Source: Candidatus Neomicrothrix sp. UBA2517 (GTDB lineage: Bacteria > Actinomycetota > Acidimicrobiia > Acidimicrobiales > UBA8592). Taken from it: a stretch of 64,000 nucleotides of DNA. The DNA is taken from positions 51,709 to 115,708 of the forward strand of contig DDNP01000002.1 of assembly GCA_002341185.1 (NCBI GenBank). Reading direction: 5' to 3'. This document shows, piece by piece, positions 13,730 to 20,934 of this stretch. The notes below the pieces were generated by a model. It made no database searches, was not told the origin of the DNA, and saw only the letters and a program-made list of their open reading frames with translations. Position 1 is the stretch's first letter. Every line of letters starts with the position of its first letter. A program made the translations under genes and the position numbers.

Positions 13730-14323
13730 TCATCCACCTTGGTCAGGGAAAAGGTCAGAACCGACATGAACAAGAACATTTGCATCGGAAAGATCATCGA
13801 TTGGGAGAGTTTCGGGCATAGGTAACACATTGTTGCTGTCTGCATTTATGATCAATCTAACATTCTGGGCATCTAAGTCATAACCCTCTCCGTAATAGAC
13901 AAATGTTTCAAGTAAGACTTCATCTCCATTATCATTCGTGGCTTTGACACCGTTATACCCGGCTGTGGCAACAAGAGTATCTAAGGTTGCTCCAGCTGCT
14001 CCAGTAACCTCAGTTCCATTCGCCACCAGAACTCGTACTTCAGCAGGCGGATGAAGAACAGACGTTGGAGTTGTCGGAGTTTGCTCATTTGCTTCACTCT
14101 CACCATTTTCCTGCACTGCTTCTGTTGTTTCTTCTGGAGAGTTGGAGACTTCTTGTTCTTGTTCTTGTTCCTGTTCTTGTCTTTCTGGTTGTTGCATTTC
14201 TTGATTAGATTTAAGTGGATCAGAGGAAACTGCAGTGTTGTTGCTGAAGCCTTCGTTAAGGACAATAACCCCGATCGTAATCACGGCAACAATTAATAGG
14301 ACTCCCTTACCCGCAATATTCAT
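13730..14323 (-). CDS. Membrane-anchored LytR C-terminal domain protein
   Basis: N-terminal TM helix, Q/E/T-rich linker, then VRVLVANGT..GAAG and VLVHVGSD typical of LytR_C. Confidence 0.8.
   Translation of the reverse strand: MNIAGKGVLLIVAVITIGVIVLNEGFSNNTAVSSDPLKSNQEMQQPERQEQEQEQEQEVSNSPEETTEAVQENGESEANEQTPTTPTSVLHPPAEVRVLVANGTEVTGAAGATLDTLVATAGYNGVKATNDNGDEVLLETFVYYGEGYDLDAQNVRLIINADSNNVLPMPETLPIDDLSDANVLVHVGSDLFPDQGG
14151..14180. repeat. Hexanucleotide tandem repeat (TCTTGT)x5, one unit variant
   Basis: tcttgt tcttgt tcttgt tcctgt tcttgt; encodes the QEQEQEQEQE linker of the LytR_C protein. Confidence 0.8.
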
Positions 14324-14381: not shown

Positions 14382-14639
14382 TTAGCGAATCGGGTAATTG
14401 CTAATAGAAATTCCTAATTTCTTTGATCTTCGGAACTTTCTAGCTCTTTGTAATCTTTTAACAACCATCGGATCAAACTCTAAGGCAGTAGGTTTATCAA
14501 TTAGGGAATCTCGAAGTTGATAGTACCTTGCTGGCGAAATAGAAAACGTTTGACGTATAGCTTCATGTTTGGTGCCATTATTTTGCCAAGCAGATCTCTC
14601 AAATTCTAGAATTGCGAAGTCTCGTTCAGTCAGGGACAC
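14382..14639 (-). CDS. DUF3263 family protein
   Basis: LTERDFAILEFER..W...KHEAIRQTFSISPARYYQL..LID...ALEFDPMVVKRLQR. Confidence 0.88.
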   Translation of the reverse strand: MSLTERDFAILEFERSAWQNNGTKHEAIRQTFSISPARYYQLRDSLIDKPTALEFDPMVVKRLQRARKFRRSKKLGISISNYPIR

Positions 14640-16234: not shown

Positions 16235-16894
16235 ATGACAAATGCTGATTTCCTTCGATCTATAGATATGTTTTCCGAACTTGATGATGAGCTGTTAAAA
16301 CCAATTGTGGACCAATCTGAAACTGTAGATCTTCAACGTGGGGATGTCGTTTTTCAGTCAGGTGACGAATCTAGTGATTTGTATATTGTGACTCATGGAA
16401 GAATCGCAATAGGTAATCGCTCTTTTGATGGAAGGGAATCGCTAGTTGCATTAATGGAGGCTGGTGATTTATTTGGGGAAATGCCATTGTTTAGCAATGA
16501 CGGGCGGTCAGCAGAAGCTCGAGCGCTTGAGGAATCTTCACTCATTGTGATCCCTTATAAGCCTATAAAAGATTTATATGACGATAATCCAGCACTCCTT
16601 TGGAGAGTAGTTGAGATGCTGGTAAGTCGACTAAAAAGCACTGACATAGCTCTTTCAGATACCATGTTTTTGGACGTTACAGGGAGAACAGCGAAGCGGC
16701 TTTTGGAAATGGCTGGGGACTCAGATGAATTTCGATTGCCGATCACGCAAGAAGAATTAGCTGGAATGATCGGTGCATCTAGAGAACGTGTCAATAAATC
16801 AATTTCTTCGTTTATCAAACTAGGTTGGATATCTCAAAGTGGTGAAAAATACATAATTCTTGACCGAAAACAACTTGAAATACGTTCTACTTAA
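16235..16894 (+). CDS. Crp/Fnr family transcriptional regulator (GlxR/CRP-like)
   Basis: cNMP pocket FGEMPLF...RSAEA; HTH ITQEELAGMIGASRERVNK. Confidence 0.93.
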   Translation: MTNADFLRSIDMFSELDDELLKPIVDQSETVDLQRGDVVFQSGDESSDLYIVTHGRIAIGNRSFDGRESLVALMEAGDLFGEMPLFSNDGRSAEARALEESSLIVIPYKPIKDLYDDNPALLWRVVEMLVSRLKSTDIALSDTMFLDVTGRTAKRLLEMAGDSDEFRLPITQEELAGMIGASRERVNKSISSFIKLGWISQSGEKYIILDRKQLEIRST

Positions 16895-16900
16895 AAGTAT

Positions 16901-18385
16901 CTATTGACGCCTAAAAAATTCGTTTAACCTATTCACCTTAGGGTGGCTTAGATTTGGATCTACTTTTTTACCACCGGCATCTAGTAATACGGTTTTCATT
17001 CCAAGGCTTTTTGCTGTATCGAGAAAGTTTATTTCTGTATCAAGCACGAGACAAGATTGATAGGCGATACCGGAGGATCTATTGAGAATTTCAAAAATTG
17101 CCGGATCAGGTTTCCGGACCCCATTTTGAGAGCTTATGATCCAAGGATTTATTCCCTGGAGCCCGTATAGATTGCAAATTTCTATGGACCATTCAGCCAG
17201 GTCATTCGTTACTACAGAGACAGCAATTCCCCTTTTATGAAGATTTTTGAGGAAATCTTTTCCACCATTACGAAATTGAAGGCTTTTAACATATTCACGA
17301 TTCAGAGAATCTGAGTCTCCTTCAAGCCCTACTCGGTTCCATAAGTCCGATGCTGTGACCTTTCCCATCGTGCCTGAGCGGTGCAGCTCTATCAGCTCAT
17401 CATGGTCTATTTTTCCATTTTTTGCCTTTACGAATGCGCTCAGGTAGTCAATTTGATTTGTCTCCTTCTTGAAGATAACACCATACGGATCTATCACAAG
17501 TAGTTGGAGGCGTTCTGTTTGATGAGTTGATTGCTGAAAGCCTTCGGTTTCTTTCCCAGGTATTTGCTGAGAAATAGGCGATGGCCGTCGCTGTAATTGT
17601 TTTTTCTCATACCGCTTATCTAGAAACCAGTTAAGAATAGCGAGAATTATAGAGAGCCCTAAAAGGGCTATAACCGCCACAACCACCCAGTCAAGTATCT
17701 GAGCGATTCTATGTTCACTGTTGCCTGAAACGTCAATGACTCTTTGATCCCCCAAGGGCAAATCAATTATCTCTTCATTACTTTGATCTGGAAGGTTAAT
17801 AATTATTTGCATTGAGACAACATCGGTTATCGGGCGCCCTAAAGATTCTTCAAGTGTCTCTAGAGCTATTCCTAAAGGGGGTTCCTCGAGTAAATTATTC
17901 AGATCGTCATCTGTAAATAAACTAAGGCCGCCGGTAAGGTCAACGTTGCCCGATATAGAAAAATTGCGTTTCTTAGTTGTTACATCTGAGAATATTTGCC
18001 AACCTTTGAAAGTATCAGGTGAAGTTGTAAGTTCGTTTAACACGCCTTGTAAATCTTCAGAATTAACAAACGTTTTTGTTGCCTCAAACCATTCTCTTCC
18101 ATCAGGGCCGAGTCCAGTACTCTCAAATTCCCAACTGGATGCCGATAAATCACTTATTTGTAAGACTTCCTCAATATCTTGAAACGCTGGTTGATTTCTG
18201 GCTCCTTCATCTAGCCCAACACCTGCTGTAACTAGCCCTGAACCATCTTCATTTACATCAATTTTTACACGCAACTGTATCGTGCAACCAGCAGTCAAAA
18301 ATAGTATGGCAAGAACAAAGAATGCTACATTTTTAAATTTACTTCGCACACTTGCATAGTACCCCCAACAAGTGGGTACGCTCAC
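16901..18385 (-). CDS. Fusion protein: LppM/DUF3153-like lipoprotein domain, TM helix, HAD-like hydrolase
   Basis: Lipobox LTAGC then IQLRVKIDVNEDGSG; TM DWVVVAVIALLGLSIILAILNW; HAD motifs VIDPYGVIF, VVTN, RKPDPAIF. GTG at 18349 is a plausible alternative start. Confidence 0.7.
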   Translation of the reverse strand: MSVPTCWGYYASVRSKFKNVAFFVLAILFLTAGCTIQLRVKIDVNEDGSGLVTAGVGLDEGARNQPAFQDIEEVLQISDLSASSWEFESTGLGPDGREWFEATKTFVNSEDLQGVLNELTTSPDTFKGWQIFSDVTTKKRNFSISGNVDLTGGLSLFTDDDLNNLLEEPPLGIALETLEESLGRPITDVVSMQIIINLPDQSNEEIIDLPLGDQRVIDVSGNSEHRIAQILDWVVVAVIALLGLSIILAILNWFLDKRYEKKQLQRRPSPISQQIPGKETEGFQQSTHQTERLQLLVIDPYGVIFKKETNQIDYLSAFVKAKNGKIDHDELIELHRSGTMGKVTASDLWNRVGLEGDSDSLNREYVKSLQFRNGGKDFLKNLHKRGIAVSVVTNDLAEWSIEICNLYGLQGINPWIISSQNGVRKPDPAIFEILNRSSGIAYQSCLVLDTEINFLDTAKSLGMKTVLLDAGGKKVDPNLSHPKVNRLNEFFRRQ

Positions 18386-18402
18386 CAGATAACGGTTATT
18401 TG

Positions 18403-20934
18403 CTATTCAGCTGCAATAAATTCTTCCACTGATGGTGGCTCAAAGCCCTCTACCGCTTTGAAAATTATCTTGCTATCAGTTTCATCTTCTATTTCATTAT
18501 CGATATCAACAACTACTATTTGACCTGCATTAAACTCTTTCAAAAGTAATCTTTCCGAAAGCGGATCTTCAACAAGACGCTGAATAGCTCTACGTAAAGG
18601 TCTTGCTCCTAGTTCAGGATCATAGCCTCTATCAGCGAGATAATGCTTCGCCTCAACCGTGACTTCTAAGCCCATCCCTTGCATTTCAAGTTGTTCTGTT
18701 ACTCTGGCAACCATTAAGTCAACTATTTCGGTTACCTCACTCTTTGATAGCTCATGGAAGACGATAACTTCATCAACACGATTTAGGAATTCGGGCCTAA
18801 AGTGATTTTTCAAAGATTCTGTAACTTTATCTTTCATTTTTTGGTAGGTCACAGATTCATCGTTTGTCGAGAAGCCAAGATTGGCTTTTCTTAAATCGCG
18901 TGTTCCTAAATTAGATGTCATAATAATTACAGTGTTACGGAAATCAACTGATCTCCCTTGACTATCCGTTAACCTTCCTTCTTCAAGTATTTGCAGAAGA
19001 GCATTAAATACATCTGGGTGAGCTTTCTCTATCTCATCAAAAAGGACTACTGAAAATGGTTTTCTTCTCACTGCTTCTGTAAGCTGTCCACCTTCTTCAT
19101 ATCCCACGTACCCAGGAGGAGAACCCATAAGCCTACTCACGGTGTGTTTTTCCATGTATTCAGACATATCTAAACTGATGAGTGCTTGCTCATCCCCAAA
19201 TAAGAATTCCGCTAACGTTTTTGCTAATTCGGTTTTTCCGACTCCGGATGGGCCTAAGAATATGAAAGACCCAGATGGCCGTTTCGGATCCTTTAAACCA
19301 GCTCTTGTACGTCGGATCGCCTGACTTACAGCTTTTATGCTATCTTCTTGCCCAATCACACGCTTATGGAGTTCATCTTCCATCCGAAGTAGCTTCGCAG
19401 TTTCTTCCTCAGTTAATTTGAAAACAGGAATTCCAGTCCAAACGGAGAGAACCTCTGCAATTGCTTCTTCATCTACTTCATCAAAGAAATCGACACCAGA
19501 ATCTTTCATTTCATTTTCCATGGCTTCTTTTTTGTTAAGTAGCTCTTTTTCTTTATCACGCAGGCGACCGGCTTCTTCAAAGTCTTGTGATTCAACGGCT
19601 GCTTTCTTTTCACCTGTAACAATAGCTAACTCATTTTCTATTTCTTTAAAGTCTGGAGGAGTTTCCATTCTTTTCAGTCGCAAACGTGAACCAGCTTCAT
19701 CAATAAGGTCTATAGCTTTATCGGGAAGGTGGCGATCTGAAATATAACGATCGGCCAGATTTGCTGCGGCAACAAGCGCTTGGTCGGTGATTGTGACCTT
19801 GTGATGCTCCTCATAGCGATCACGAAGACCTTTCAGGATTTCTATGGTGTGCGAGACAGAAGGTTCATCAACAATAATCTTCTGGAATCGCCTTTCAAGA
19901 GCTGCATCTTTCTCAAGGTGTTTCCTATATTCGTCAAGGGTAGTCGCCCCAATAGTTTGAAGCTCTCCACGAGCGAGCATTGGCTTTAGAATCGAAGCTG
20001 CATCAATAGCTCCCTCAGCAGCTCCGGCCCCTACGAGAGTATGAAGCTCATCTATAAATAATATGATGTCCCCTCGTGTTTTGATTTCCTTTAAAACTTT
20101 TTTAAGTCTTTCTTCAAAATCACCTCGATATCGGGAGCCCGCTACCAAAGCTCCGAGGTCTAATGTGTAAAGTTGTTTGCCTCGAAGGGGCTCTGGCACA
20201 TCGTTTGTAGCTATCGATCTTGCTAATCCTTCCACAATAGCCGTTTTCCCAACTCCAGGCTCGCCAACAAGAACTGGATTGTTCTTAGTTCTTCTGCTCA
20301 GAACTTGCATAACTCGTTCTGCTTCTCTTGACCTACCGATAACTGGATCAAGTTTTTTTTCTTTGGCAAGTTGGGTTAAGTTCCGTCCGAATTGATCAAG
20401 CACCATAGAAGAATTTGGGTCACCGCCTCTTCCTCCCGTTCCGGCTGAGGCTCTTTCTCCTTTTCGACCGCCTTCTTGTTCTTGATCGCCTGAACCTGAA
20501 TACCCTGAAAGTAGTTGGATAACTTGTTGCCTAACACGAGAAAGGTCAGCTCCAAGTTTTGTTAGGACTTGAGCTGCTACTCCTTCGCCTTCTCGAATCA
20601 AGCCTAATAAAATGTGTTCAGTGCCAATATAGTTGTGACCTAGTTGAAGAGCTTCTCTTAAACTTAACTCCAACACTTTCTTGGCTCGGGGCGTAAACGG
20701 AATATGGCCGCTGGGGGATGAACCACCCTGTCCGATAATTTCCTCAACCTGTTCTCGAACAGCCTCCAGAGAAATTCCTAAAGATTCGAGCGCTTTCGCG
20801 GCTACCCCTTCTCCTTCATGTATCAGCCCTAAAAGGATGTGCTCCGTTCCTATATAATTGTGGTTGAGGAGACGAGCTTCTTCTTGAGCTAGAACGACTA
20901 CTCTTCGTGCTCTATCTGTAAATCTTTCAAACAA
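18403..20934 (-). CDS. clpC: ATP-dependent Clp protease ATP-binding subunit ClpC
   Basis: [22 protein letters not shown]-domain; two AAA modules ([16 protein letters not shown]); TTG start. Confidence 0.98.

Follow-up and report, generated by a model that had tools for sequence, protein, structure and literature searches.

What does a haloacid dehalogenase (HAD)-like domain do under the membrane when it is joined, in one reading frame, to an envelope lipoprotein? This question is raised by a gene on the minus strand of a 64,000-nucleotide stretch of contig DDNP01000002.1 from Candidatus Neomicrothrix sp. UBA2517 (hereafter the window), in which the ORF (open reading frame) listing shows an uninterrupted frame at 16901-18385 encoding 494 amino acids. 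The original prediction read this frame as a lipobox protein continued through a transmembrane helix into a C-terminal HAD domain, a layout confirmed by the lipobox LTAGC, the hydrophobic helix W233-L255 and matches of the C-terminal part to PF13419 and TIGR01509. Our analysis points to the fused protein as the single LppM-family envelope lipoprotein of the organism, an orthologue of the stand-alone gene found downstream of clpC in related bacteria, with a HAD domain gained in an old sub-lineage. Judging from its residues, the C-terminal domain is, on balance, probably an accessory ligand-binding or regulatory module, or else a very slow or non-canonical enzyme, and not a standard phosphatase. 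The parts of the gene are listed below, with residues numbered here and throughout from the first codon of the 494-residue ORF (start 18385).

16901-18349, minus strand: corrected gene of 482 amino acids plus stop, encoding an LppM-like lipoprotein, a transmembrane helix and a HAD-like domain in a single frame.
18284-18349, minus strand: lipoprotein signal peptide (V/M)RSKFKNVAFFVLAILFLTAGC, residues 13-34, with the lipobox LTAGC at 18284-18298.
17708-18283, minus strand: LppM-like extracytoplasmic domain, residues 35-226, about 190 residues.
17621-17689, minus strand: transmembrane segment WVVVAVIALLGLSIILAILNWFL, W233-L255, a single hydrophobic helix.
17510-17620, minus strand: basic stop-transfer segment and disordered linker, residues 256-292, with a conserved RRP motif.
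16904-17509, minus strand: predicted cytoplasmic HAD-IA-like domain, residues 293-494, with a four-helix C1 cap.

The lipobox residue Cys34 is invariant in every alignment made, including those of 19 sequences (A1) and of 43 relatives (A6), and closes the pattern L-x-[AS]-[GAS]-C. Modelled alone with AF2, the ectodomain (residues 35-226) is mainly beta with short helices (pLDDT 82.8, pTM 0.79). The transmembrane helix is followed by the basic segment DKRYEKKQLQRR and, because of this segment, the residues beyond the helix are predicted by the positive-inside rule to be cytoplasmic. In the marine clade, this helix is the best-conserved segment of the fused protein (89-52% identity), and its residues W233, A237 and N252 are invariant in the A1 alignment, a degree of conservation that hints at a specific intramembrane contact instead of a passive anchor. 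The linker, C-terminal tail excepted, is the least conserved stretch of the mature protein; its residues 263-289 have pLDDT values <50 in the AF2 model, R266 and R267 are nearly invariant, and fused relatives have linkers of about 25 to 60 residues, always in frame. Identity to the window protein runs from 75 to 28% for the HAD domain and from 71 to 25% for the ectodomain. Measured in this way, the HAD domain is evolving as slowly as the ectodomain and is not decaying as a whole.

That two separate genes were joined by a lost stop or a frameshift, as an artefact of assembly or annotation, is hardly conceivable. The same frame spans both domains in dozens of metagenome clusters and in the genomes of 27 species that were assembled independently, from 99% to 25% identity. 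With each GTDB species represented by one genome, a scan yielded 34 loci, and in 27 of them the two-domain gene is complete and in one frame. These 27 bear the labels Acidimicrobiales, Acidimicrobiia or generic Actinomycetota metagenome-assembled genomes (MAGs) and come from different studies. A word-indexed search covering ENA, JGI, TARA and NCBI found 43 homologue clusters at 99% to 25% identity to the window protein, the majority being full length. We found no support for an artefact, and the lost stop against which the original prediction had cautioned is answered by the single frame in the 27 species loci and the 43 clusters: the fusion is genuine. One further fused locus (L011) is cut by a contig end. 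The sole frame change was seen in an Acidimicrobiales MAG (L027:6001-7342), in which the N-domain and the HAD part lie in different frames; the change falls inside the N-domain and points to a frameshift (pseudogene) or to an error of assembly.

The N-terminal domain had been called LppM-like and assigned to PF11353. This accession corresponds to DUF3153, which matches neither the fused protein nor anything in the genome, and it was rejected for LppM; relatives match PF21946, the actual LppM model (gathering cut-off 27 bits), and not PF11353. The LppM likeness itself stands by fold and through profile and transitive links, but it is remote and finds no direct Pfam match: PF21946 gave no match to the fused protein at E <= 10 and none in a six-frame search of the genome. 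Among 43 fused relatives, the same model produced sub-threshold matches in six, the best at E 2.8e-4. The only PDB fold match of the ectodomain model at E <= 0.001, using Foldseek, was 2NC8, the nuclear magnetic resonance (NMR) structure of Mycobacterium tuberculosis LppM (E 1.6e-5, probability 1.00, TM-score 0.39/0.42, root-mean-square deviation 8.1 Å), with the next match at E 0.14; the superposition on 2NC8 is moderate, not tight.

Profile searches link the fused ectodomain to stand-alone LppM proteins. The A2 profile, built from 15 N-domains, retrieved 1748 proteins at E <= 1e-3 from 1.84 billion cluster representatives, and its best matches are mostly stand-alone proteins of 230-290 residues. 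When ten such stand-alone matches of about 250 residues were scanned, two (A2 E values of about 1e-60) passed PF21946 at 31.2 and 40.5 bits and four more matched it below the cut-off. In at least 12 genomes of the phylum sample (e.g., G160, G133, G238, G190, G112, G140), the genes matched by A2 and by PF21946 coincide. An hhalign comparison with mycobacterial-type LppM returned 88% probability and E 2.9e-6, over the C-terminal half and the transmembrane helix only. LppM consists of a signal peptide, a lipobox, a soluble domain and a C-terminal transmembrane helix, and is reported to bind phosphatidylinositol (PI) and phosphatidylinositol mannoside (PIM) derivatives (PMC5217060). The fused protein has the same layout, with a lipobox, a soluble domain and then a single transmembrane helix. 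On these profile and model comparisons, the ectodomain is a remote member of the LppM superfamily, lying below Pfam's own threshold. The M. tuberculosis protein (Rv2171; 2NC8; PF21946) has the same signal peptide and lipobox, a similar soluble fold and a single transmembrane helix, whereas the fused gene sits elsewhere, downstream of clpC, adds a cytoplasmic extension of about 240 residues that LppM lacks, and encodes a sequence too dissimilar for a direct Pfam or PDB-sequence match. Binding of PI/PIM is reported for the M. tuberculosis protein only; by analogy, it would be a candidate property of the fused protein.

Is the HAD domain a regular part of this lipoprotein? The N-domain profile has a single match in the window's genome (G000) and the fused gene is therefore its only LppM-like gene. 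Full-length two-domain matches occur in four of the 301 genomes sampled in the class (G000, G542, G446 and G550), and more than 100 others carry an N-domain-only gene that ends just past the transmembrane helix. These stand-alone Acidimicrobiia lipoproteins of 240-290 residues are orthologous by profile (E 1e-20 to 1e-57) and share with the fused gene both the lipobox-domain-helix layout and the site after clpC. Unlike the fused protein, they end about 10-30 residues past the helix, in agreement with the earlier statement that LppM proteins normally stop shortly after it. Stand-alone loci were fetched in 13 genomes of the order and class: clpC lies immediately upstream in 11 of them, and no HAD relative was found within 1.5 kb of the LppM-like gene in any of the 13. 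Since unfused genes share the clpC site, the arrangement of clpC followed by an LppM-like gene is a feature of the class, and the HAD domain is an addition to that same gene.

The 150 best cluster representatives included 148 newly returned proteins, 45 of them with a HAD domain. On a FastTree phylogeny of 184 N-domains, the fused or stand-alone label requires 15 changes, at least eight of them forced by well-supported branches, compared with about 54 for shuffled labels; some of the rows labelled stand-alone within fused clades probably represent genes cut by a contig end. One old fusion that was later lost repeatedly would be the simpler history, because all fused members share a single HAD subfamily, in which the non-catalytic residues W399, S418, G422 and P426 persist in 78-80 of 81 members. 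The source databases name the fused proteins either "hypothetical protein" or "HAD-IA family hydrolase".

The C-terminal domain belongs to the HAD-IA group, with 31.4 bits against PF13419 (cut-off 23.8) and 34 against TIGR01509 (cut-off 29.4). A profile search of the PDB with this domain returned HAD proteins from E 7e-8 downward in strength. Foldseek of the whole-protein model, which is dominated by the HAD domain (hence the separate model of the ectodomain), matched HAD phosphatases and L-2-haloacid dehalogenases alike, at E values down to about 1e-9 and with TM-scores normalised to the target of up to 0.75 (3CNH). In the AF2 secondary structure, motifs I and II are separated by four helices, which form the C1 cap. 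The four motifs of the original prediction (DPYGV at 299-303, T393-N394, K425-P-D-P and D449-T) are all present as named.

17477-17491, minus strand: HAD motif I, DPYGV, residues 299-303; the nucleophile Asp299 is kept and the Asp two residues further on (Asp+2) is replaced by Tyr301.
17201-17209, minus strand: HAD motif II, T393-N394-D395.
17111-17113, minus strand: HAD motif III, Lys425, within GVRKPDP.
17018-17041, minus strand: HAD motif IV region, D449-TEINFL-D456; it retains the first acid and has no second acid where one is usual, at +1 or +4.

Residues T393, K425 and D449 thus provide the Thr/Ser of motif II, the Lys of motif III and the acid of motif IV, and in the window's clade they are fully or almost invariant. 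The D-x-D of motif I is not found, its place being taken by D299-P-Y301, and the second acid of motif IV is also missing in an alignment to 2HOQ. The HAD-IA variant 3 hydrolases (TIGR01509; Escherichia coli YihX, Bacteroides thetaiotaomicron BT-2542, Deinococcus 3CNH and the N-terminal phosphatase of soluble epoxide hydrolase) share with the C-domain the Rossmannoid core, the four-helix C1 cap and motifs I (Asp), II (Thr), III (Lys) and IV (Asp). The C-domain differs from them by the Tyr in place of Asp+2, the missing second acid of motif IV, the transmembrane tether and a variable loss of catalytic residues.

A Tyr at this position brings to mind the D-x-Y-G-T motif of dehalogenases, which DPYGV resembles, and would allow a non-phosphatase hydrolase with an Asp nucleophile, of the 2-haloacid dehalogenase or epoxide hydrolase type. 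The L-2-haloacid dehalogenase L-DEX YL (1JUD) has in common with the C-domain the D-x-Y-G first motif, the KPD-x3-[YF]-E pattern after the Lys and comparable profile and fold scores, and 1JUD, 1ZRM and 2NO4 rank among the best sequence and fold matches. Phosphatases match equally well, however, and the dehalogenase model TIGR01428 reaches only 14.3 bits against a cut-off of 125.4. Dehalogenases carry an S-S-N-x-x-D pattern in motif IV. This pattern is not present in the C-domain, the Tyr is not conserved but alternates with His and Met in relatives, and a haloacid enzyme would have little reason to be tethered to the membrane. We consider an activity of this type very unlikely.

In HAD phosphatases, Asp+2 acts as the general acid/base that protonates the leaving group and activates water, and it is needed for turnover. 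For a census of the active site, we aligned 81 fused members to the HAD profile. Not one of the 81 has Asp at the +2 position, which is occupied by His in 21, Tyr in 20, Met in 16 and other residues in 24. The nucleophile position holds Asp in 65 and is lost in the other 16, where G, A, E, N or H is found. Thr or Ser stands at position 393 in 56 of 81 members, Lys at position 425 in 58 (lost in 23) and Asp at position 449 in 68. Several fused lineages have lost three or four catalytic residues together (patterns GSAMLD, APGASD and HNILST). In the window's clade, down to about 37% identity, Asp299, Thr/Ser393, Lys425 and Asp449 are all kept and the +2 residue is Tyr or His. Because Asp+2 is never present and the nucleophile is often lost, the fused family does not seem to be held together by phosphatase activity. 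The family-wide absence of Asp+2 and the erosion of the catalytic residues also argue against the "lipid-phosphate processing enzyme" proposed by the original prediction.

The closest stand-alone relatives of the C-domain (25-32% identity) are soluble D-A-M-G HAD proteins from sponge-associated MAGs (L028-L033), which likewise lack Asp+2 and share the ISND/ITND...W, RKP and VDD motifs but, unlike the fused protein, have no lipoprotein or transmembrane part. Their hosts are Gammaproteobacteria, Chloroflexi and Dehalococcoidia MAGs, and the proteins are about 200-230 residues long, with Met at Asp+2 and motifs II-IV intact (SND/TND, RKP, VDD). Judged by these motifs, the group looks like an uncharacterised HAD subfamily devoid of the general acid/base. 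The neighbourhoods of two of these genes (L030 and L032) encode a pyrroloquinoline quinone (PQQ) dehydrogenase, a GNAT protein, another HAD protein, a Nudix protein, an ABC ATPase, MnmE and a glyoxalase, none of them shared or informative.

We therefore propose the following picture for the fused protein as an accessory-module lipoprotein. The N-terminal Cys would be lipidated, leaving the LppM-like domain of about 190 residues on the outer face of the membrane, where, if M. tuberculosis LppM is a guide, it may hold a phospho- or glycolipid of the envelope. The conserved transmembrane helix and the basic, disordered linker would place the HAD-like domain under the membrane. There, Asp299, Thr393, Lys425 and Asp449 are predicted to bind Mg2+ and a phosphoryl group. 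A domain of this kind devoid of Asp+2 would bind a phosphorylated ligand or exert a regulatory effect, or turn its substrate over very slowly, and would not be a housekeeping phosphatase. It would also be accessory, as most relatives do without it.

Several observations weigh against this picture. The homology to LppM is remote, with a TM-score of only 0.39-0.42 against the NMR model and no direct Pfam match, and searches of PDB sequences with the N-domain profiles A2 and A4 returned nothing at E <= 10, 2NC8 included, so that the domain connects to 2NC8 through the fold comparison only. Lipid binding would be extrapolated from a distant mycobacterial protein. Furthermore, the four residues predicted to bind Mg2+ and the phosphoryl group are invariant in the window's clade, where the +2 position is only ever Tyr or His, and either of these could serve as an alternative acid and permit real catalysis. 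On this last point turns a possible, if doubtful, explanation in which the C-domain is an active phosphatase tethered to the membrane, with Tyr or His at +2 standing in for the acid, and acts on a membrane-proximal lipid or sugar phosphate that feeds the envelope lipid handled by the LppM domain. The invariance of Asp299, Thr393, Lys425 and Asp449 among proteins at least 37% identical to that of the window, the restriction of +2 to Y or H in the same set, and the purifying selection on the C-domain are all consistent with it. The genome further encodes a myo-inositol-1-phosphate synthase (ino1), which makes inositol phosphates and lipids plausible and is compatible with inositol lipids, no more. 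E. coli PgpC provides a precedent for a lipid phosphatase of the HAD type anchored by a transmembrane segment. Against such an activity, Asp is absent from +2 in every fused member, motif IV lacks its second acid, and the nucleophile and/or the Lys is lost in about a quarter of the fused cluster representatives. Moreover, most Acidimicrobiia lack the domain at this locus, and consequently no essential pathway step can depend on it.

An intact set of binding residues from which the acid/base is absent would also suit a phospho-aspartate switch. Under this explanation, which returns to the speculative "sensor" idea of the original prediction, a long-lived phosphate on Asp299 would couple the state of the cytoplasm to the outer LppM domain within one component. 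P-type ATPases form a long-lived phospho-Asp and have Thr at +2. The unusual conservation of the transmembrane helix (89-52% identity) and of the juxtamembrane RRP motif would fit signalling across the membrane, but neither a kinase nor a phosphodonor or output partner lies in the neighbourhood, the Asp nucleophile is missing from many family members, and we know of no bacterial precedent for a HAD domain acting in this manner. A switch seems quite unlikely to us, and the accessory ligand-binding or regulatory module is the explanation that we retain. Were the switch true, it would be a previously undescribed way for monoderm Actinomycetota to link, within one component, the phosphate or metabolite state of the cytoplasm to the handling of envelope lipids.

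The LppM superfamily and HAD-IA, to which the two parts of the protein belong, are known kinds; a protein combining them across the membrane does not appear in the literature found. Our literature search returned no paper on an LppM-HAD architecture spanning the membrane, in line with the original prediction, which knew of no characterised protein of this build, and no description of a bacterial HAD pseudo-phosphatase of the C-domain's kind. "LppM" and "haloacid dehalogenase" occurred once each in one paper which, going by its title and abstract, deals with Mycobacterium abscessus biofilm release. Many actinobacterial envelope lipoproteins, LppM among them, have an unclear molecular role, and an old, recurrent fusion offers a testable handle on the role of the family's cytoplasmic tail. 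The C-domain is in addition a clear bacterial example of a HAD domain drifting towards a pseudo-enzyme, in which catalytic residues decay while the fold is kept. As the Pfam models miss the LppM part, the fusion is invisible in architecture listings and is labelled HAD-IA hydrolase or hypothetical protein, which affects the annotation of abundant marine Acidimicrobiales. By itself, the finding opens no long-standing question.

Where the gene starts and how it relates to clpC are connected matters.

18350-18402, minus strand: spacer of 53 nucleotides between clpC and the fused gene, including 36 nucleotides formerly counted as coding; the GG-rich stretch TTGGGGGTACTATGCAAGT is conserved directly before the GTG.
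18403-20934, minus strand: clpC-type Hsp100 ATPase gene of 843 amino acids, directly upstream of the fused gene.

The true start of the fused gene is most likely the GTG at 18349, not that at 18385. A GTG or ATG lies 21 residues before the lipobox Cys in 13 of the 13 marine-clade relatives checked (L001-L015, L019), and the starts of two more distant relatives (L017 and L020) differ from this codon. In L006 and L014, an in-frame stop lies just 5' of it, and most fused homologues are 479-482 residues long, matching the gene model of 482. We set the start at 18349 because of this conserved codon, the upstream stops in L006 and L014 and the length of the homologues. Consequently, the first 12 codons of the 494-residue ORF, counted from its first GTG, are probably untranslated. 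That ORF begins 17 nucleotides past the clpC stop, and the corrected start lies 53 nucleotides past it. About 20 nucleotides before the start (GTTGGGGGTACTATGCAAGT-GTG; window 18350-18372, minus strand) are conserved at the nucleotide level in L001-L019, with the pattern G-T/A-T-C/G-G-G/C-G-T/G-TAC-x-ATGCAA, which is kept even where the proteins are only 50% identical. Such conservation exceeds what a Shine-Dalgarno sequence needs, and the segment, lying between clpC and the lipoprotein gene, could be an element of translation or regulation.

The upstream Hsp100 gene was read as clpC from its product, which has two AAA+ modules with a short region between them and an LGF loop, and which the ClpB model matches in two stretches, without the long middle domain. 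This protein is 82-97% identical across related loci, and its gene directly precedes all 27 fused genes. No terminator-like hairpin was found on the minus strand in the 53-nucleotide gap; given this gap and the absence of a hairpin, clpC and the fused gene may be co-transcribed. The location directly downstream of clpC had been pointed out in the original prediction and holds, with its 53-nucleotide gap, but the linkage is not specific to the HAD domain and belongs to the LppM-like gene, fused or not. For the same reason, we rejected the idea that the HAD domain is functionally linked to ClpC, as unfused orthologues occupy the same site. The order clpC...radA...ispF...rlmB is a broadly conserved housekeeping block of actinobacteria.

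On the other side, a gene for a Crp/Fnr-family regulator (16235-16894, plus strand) converges on the fused gene, which ends at 16901 on the minus strand, leaving 6 nucleotides between the stop codons. We saw no convincing terminator at this junction, the transcripts of the two genes may overlap, and the regulator is syntenic in all close relatives. Further along, positions 13730-14323 (minus strand) encode a 197-residue protein, predicted to be membrane-anchored, with a low-complexity (EQ)n run (QEQEQEQEQE) and no NCBIfam match. Finally, positions 14382-14639 (minus strand) encode an 85-residue protein resembling the mycobacterial nucleoid-associated NapA (NF053843, 86 bits, below the cut-off of 160), the gene for which is conserved downstream of rlmB in related loci.

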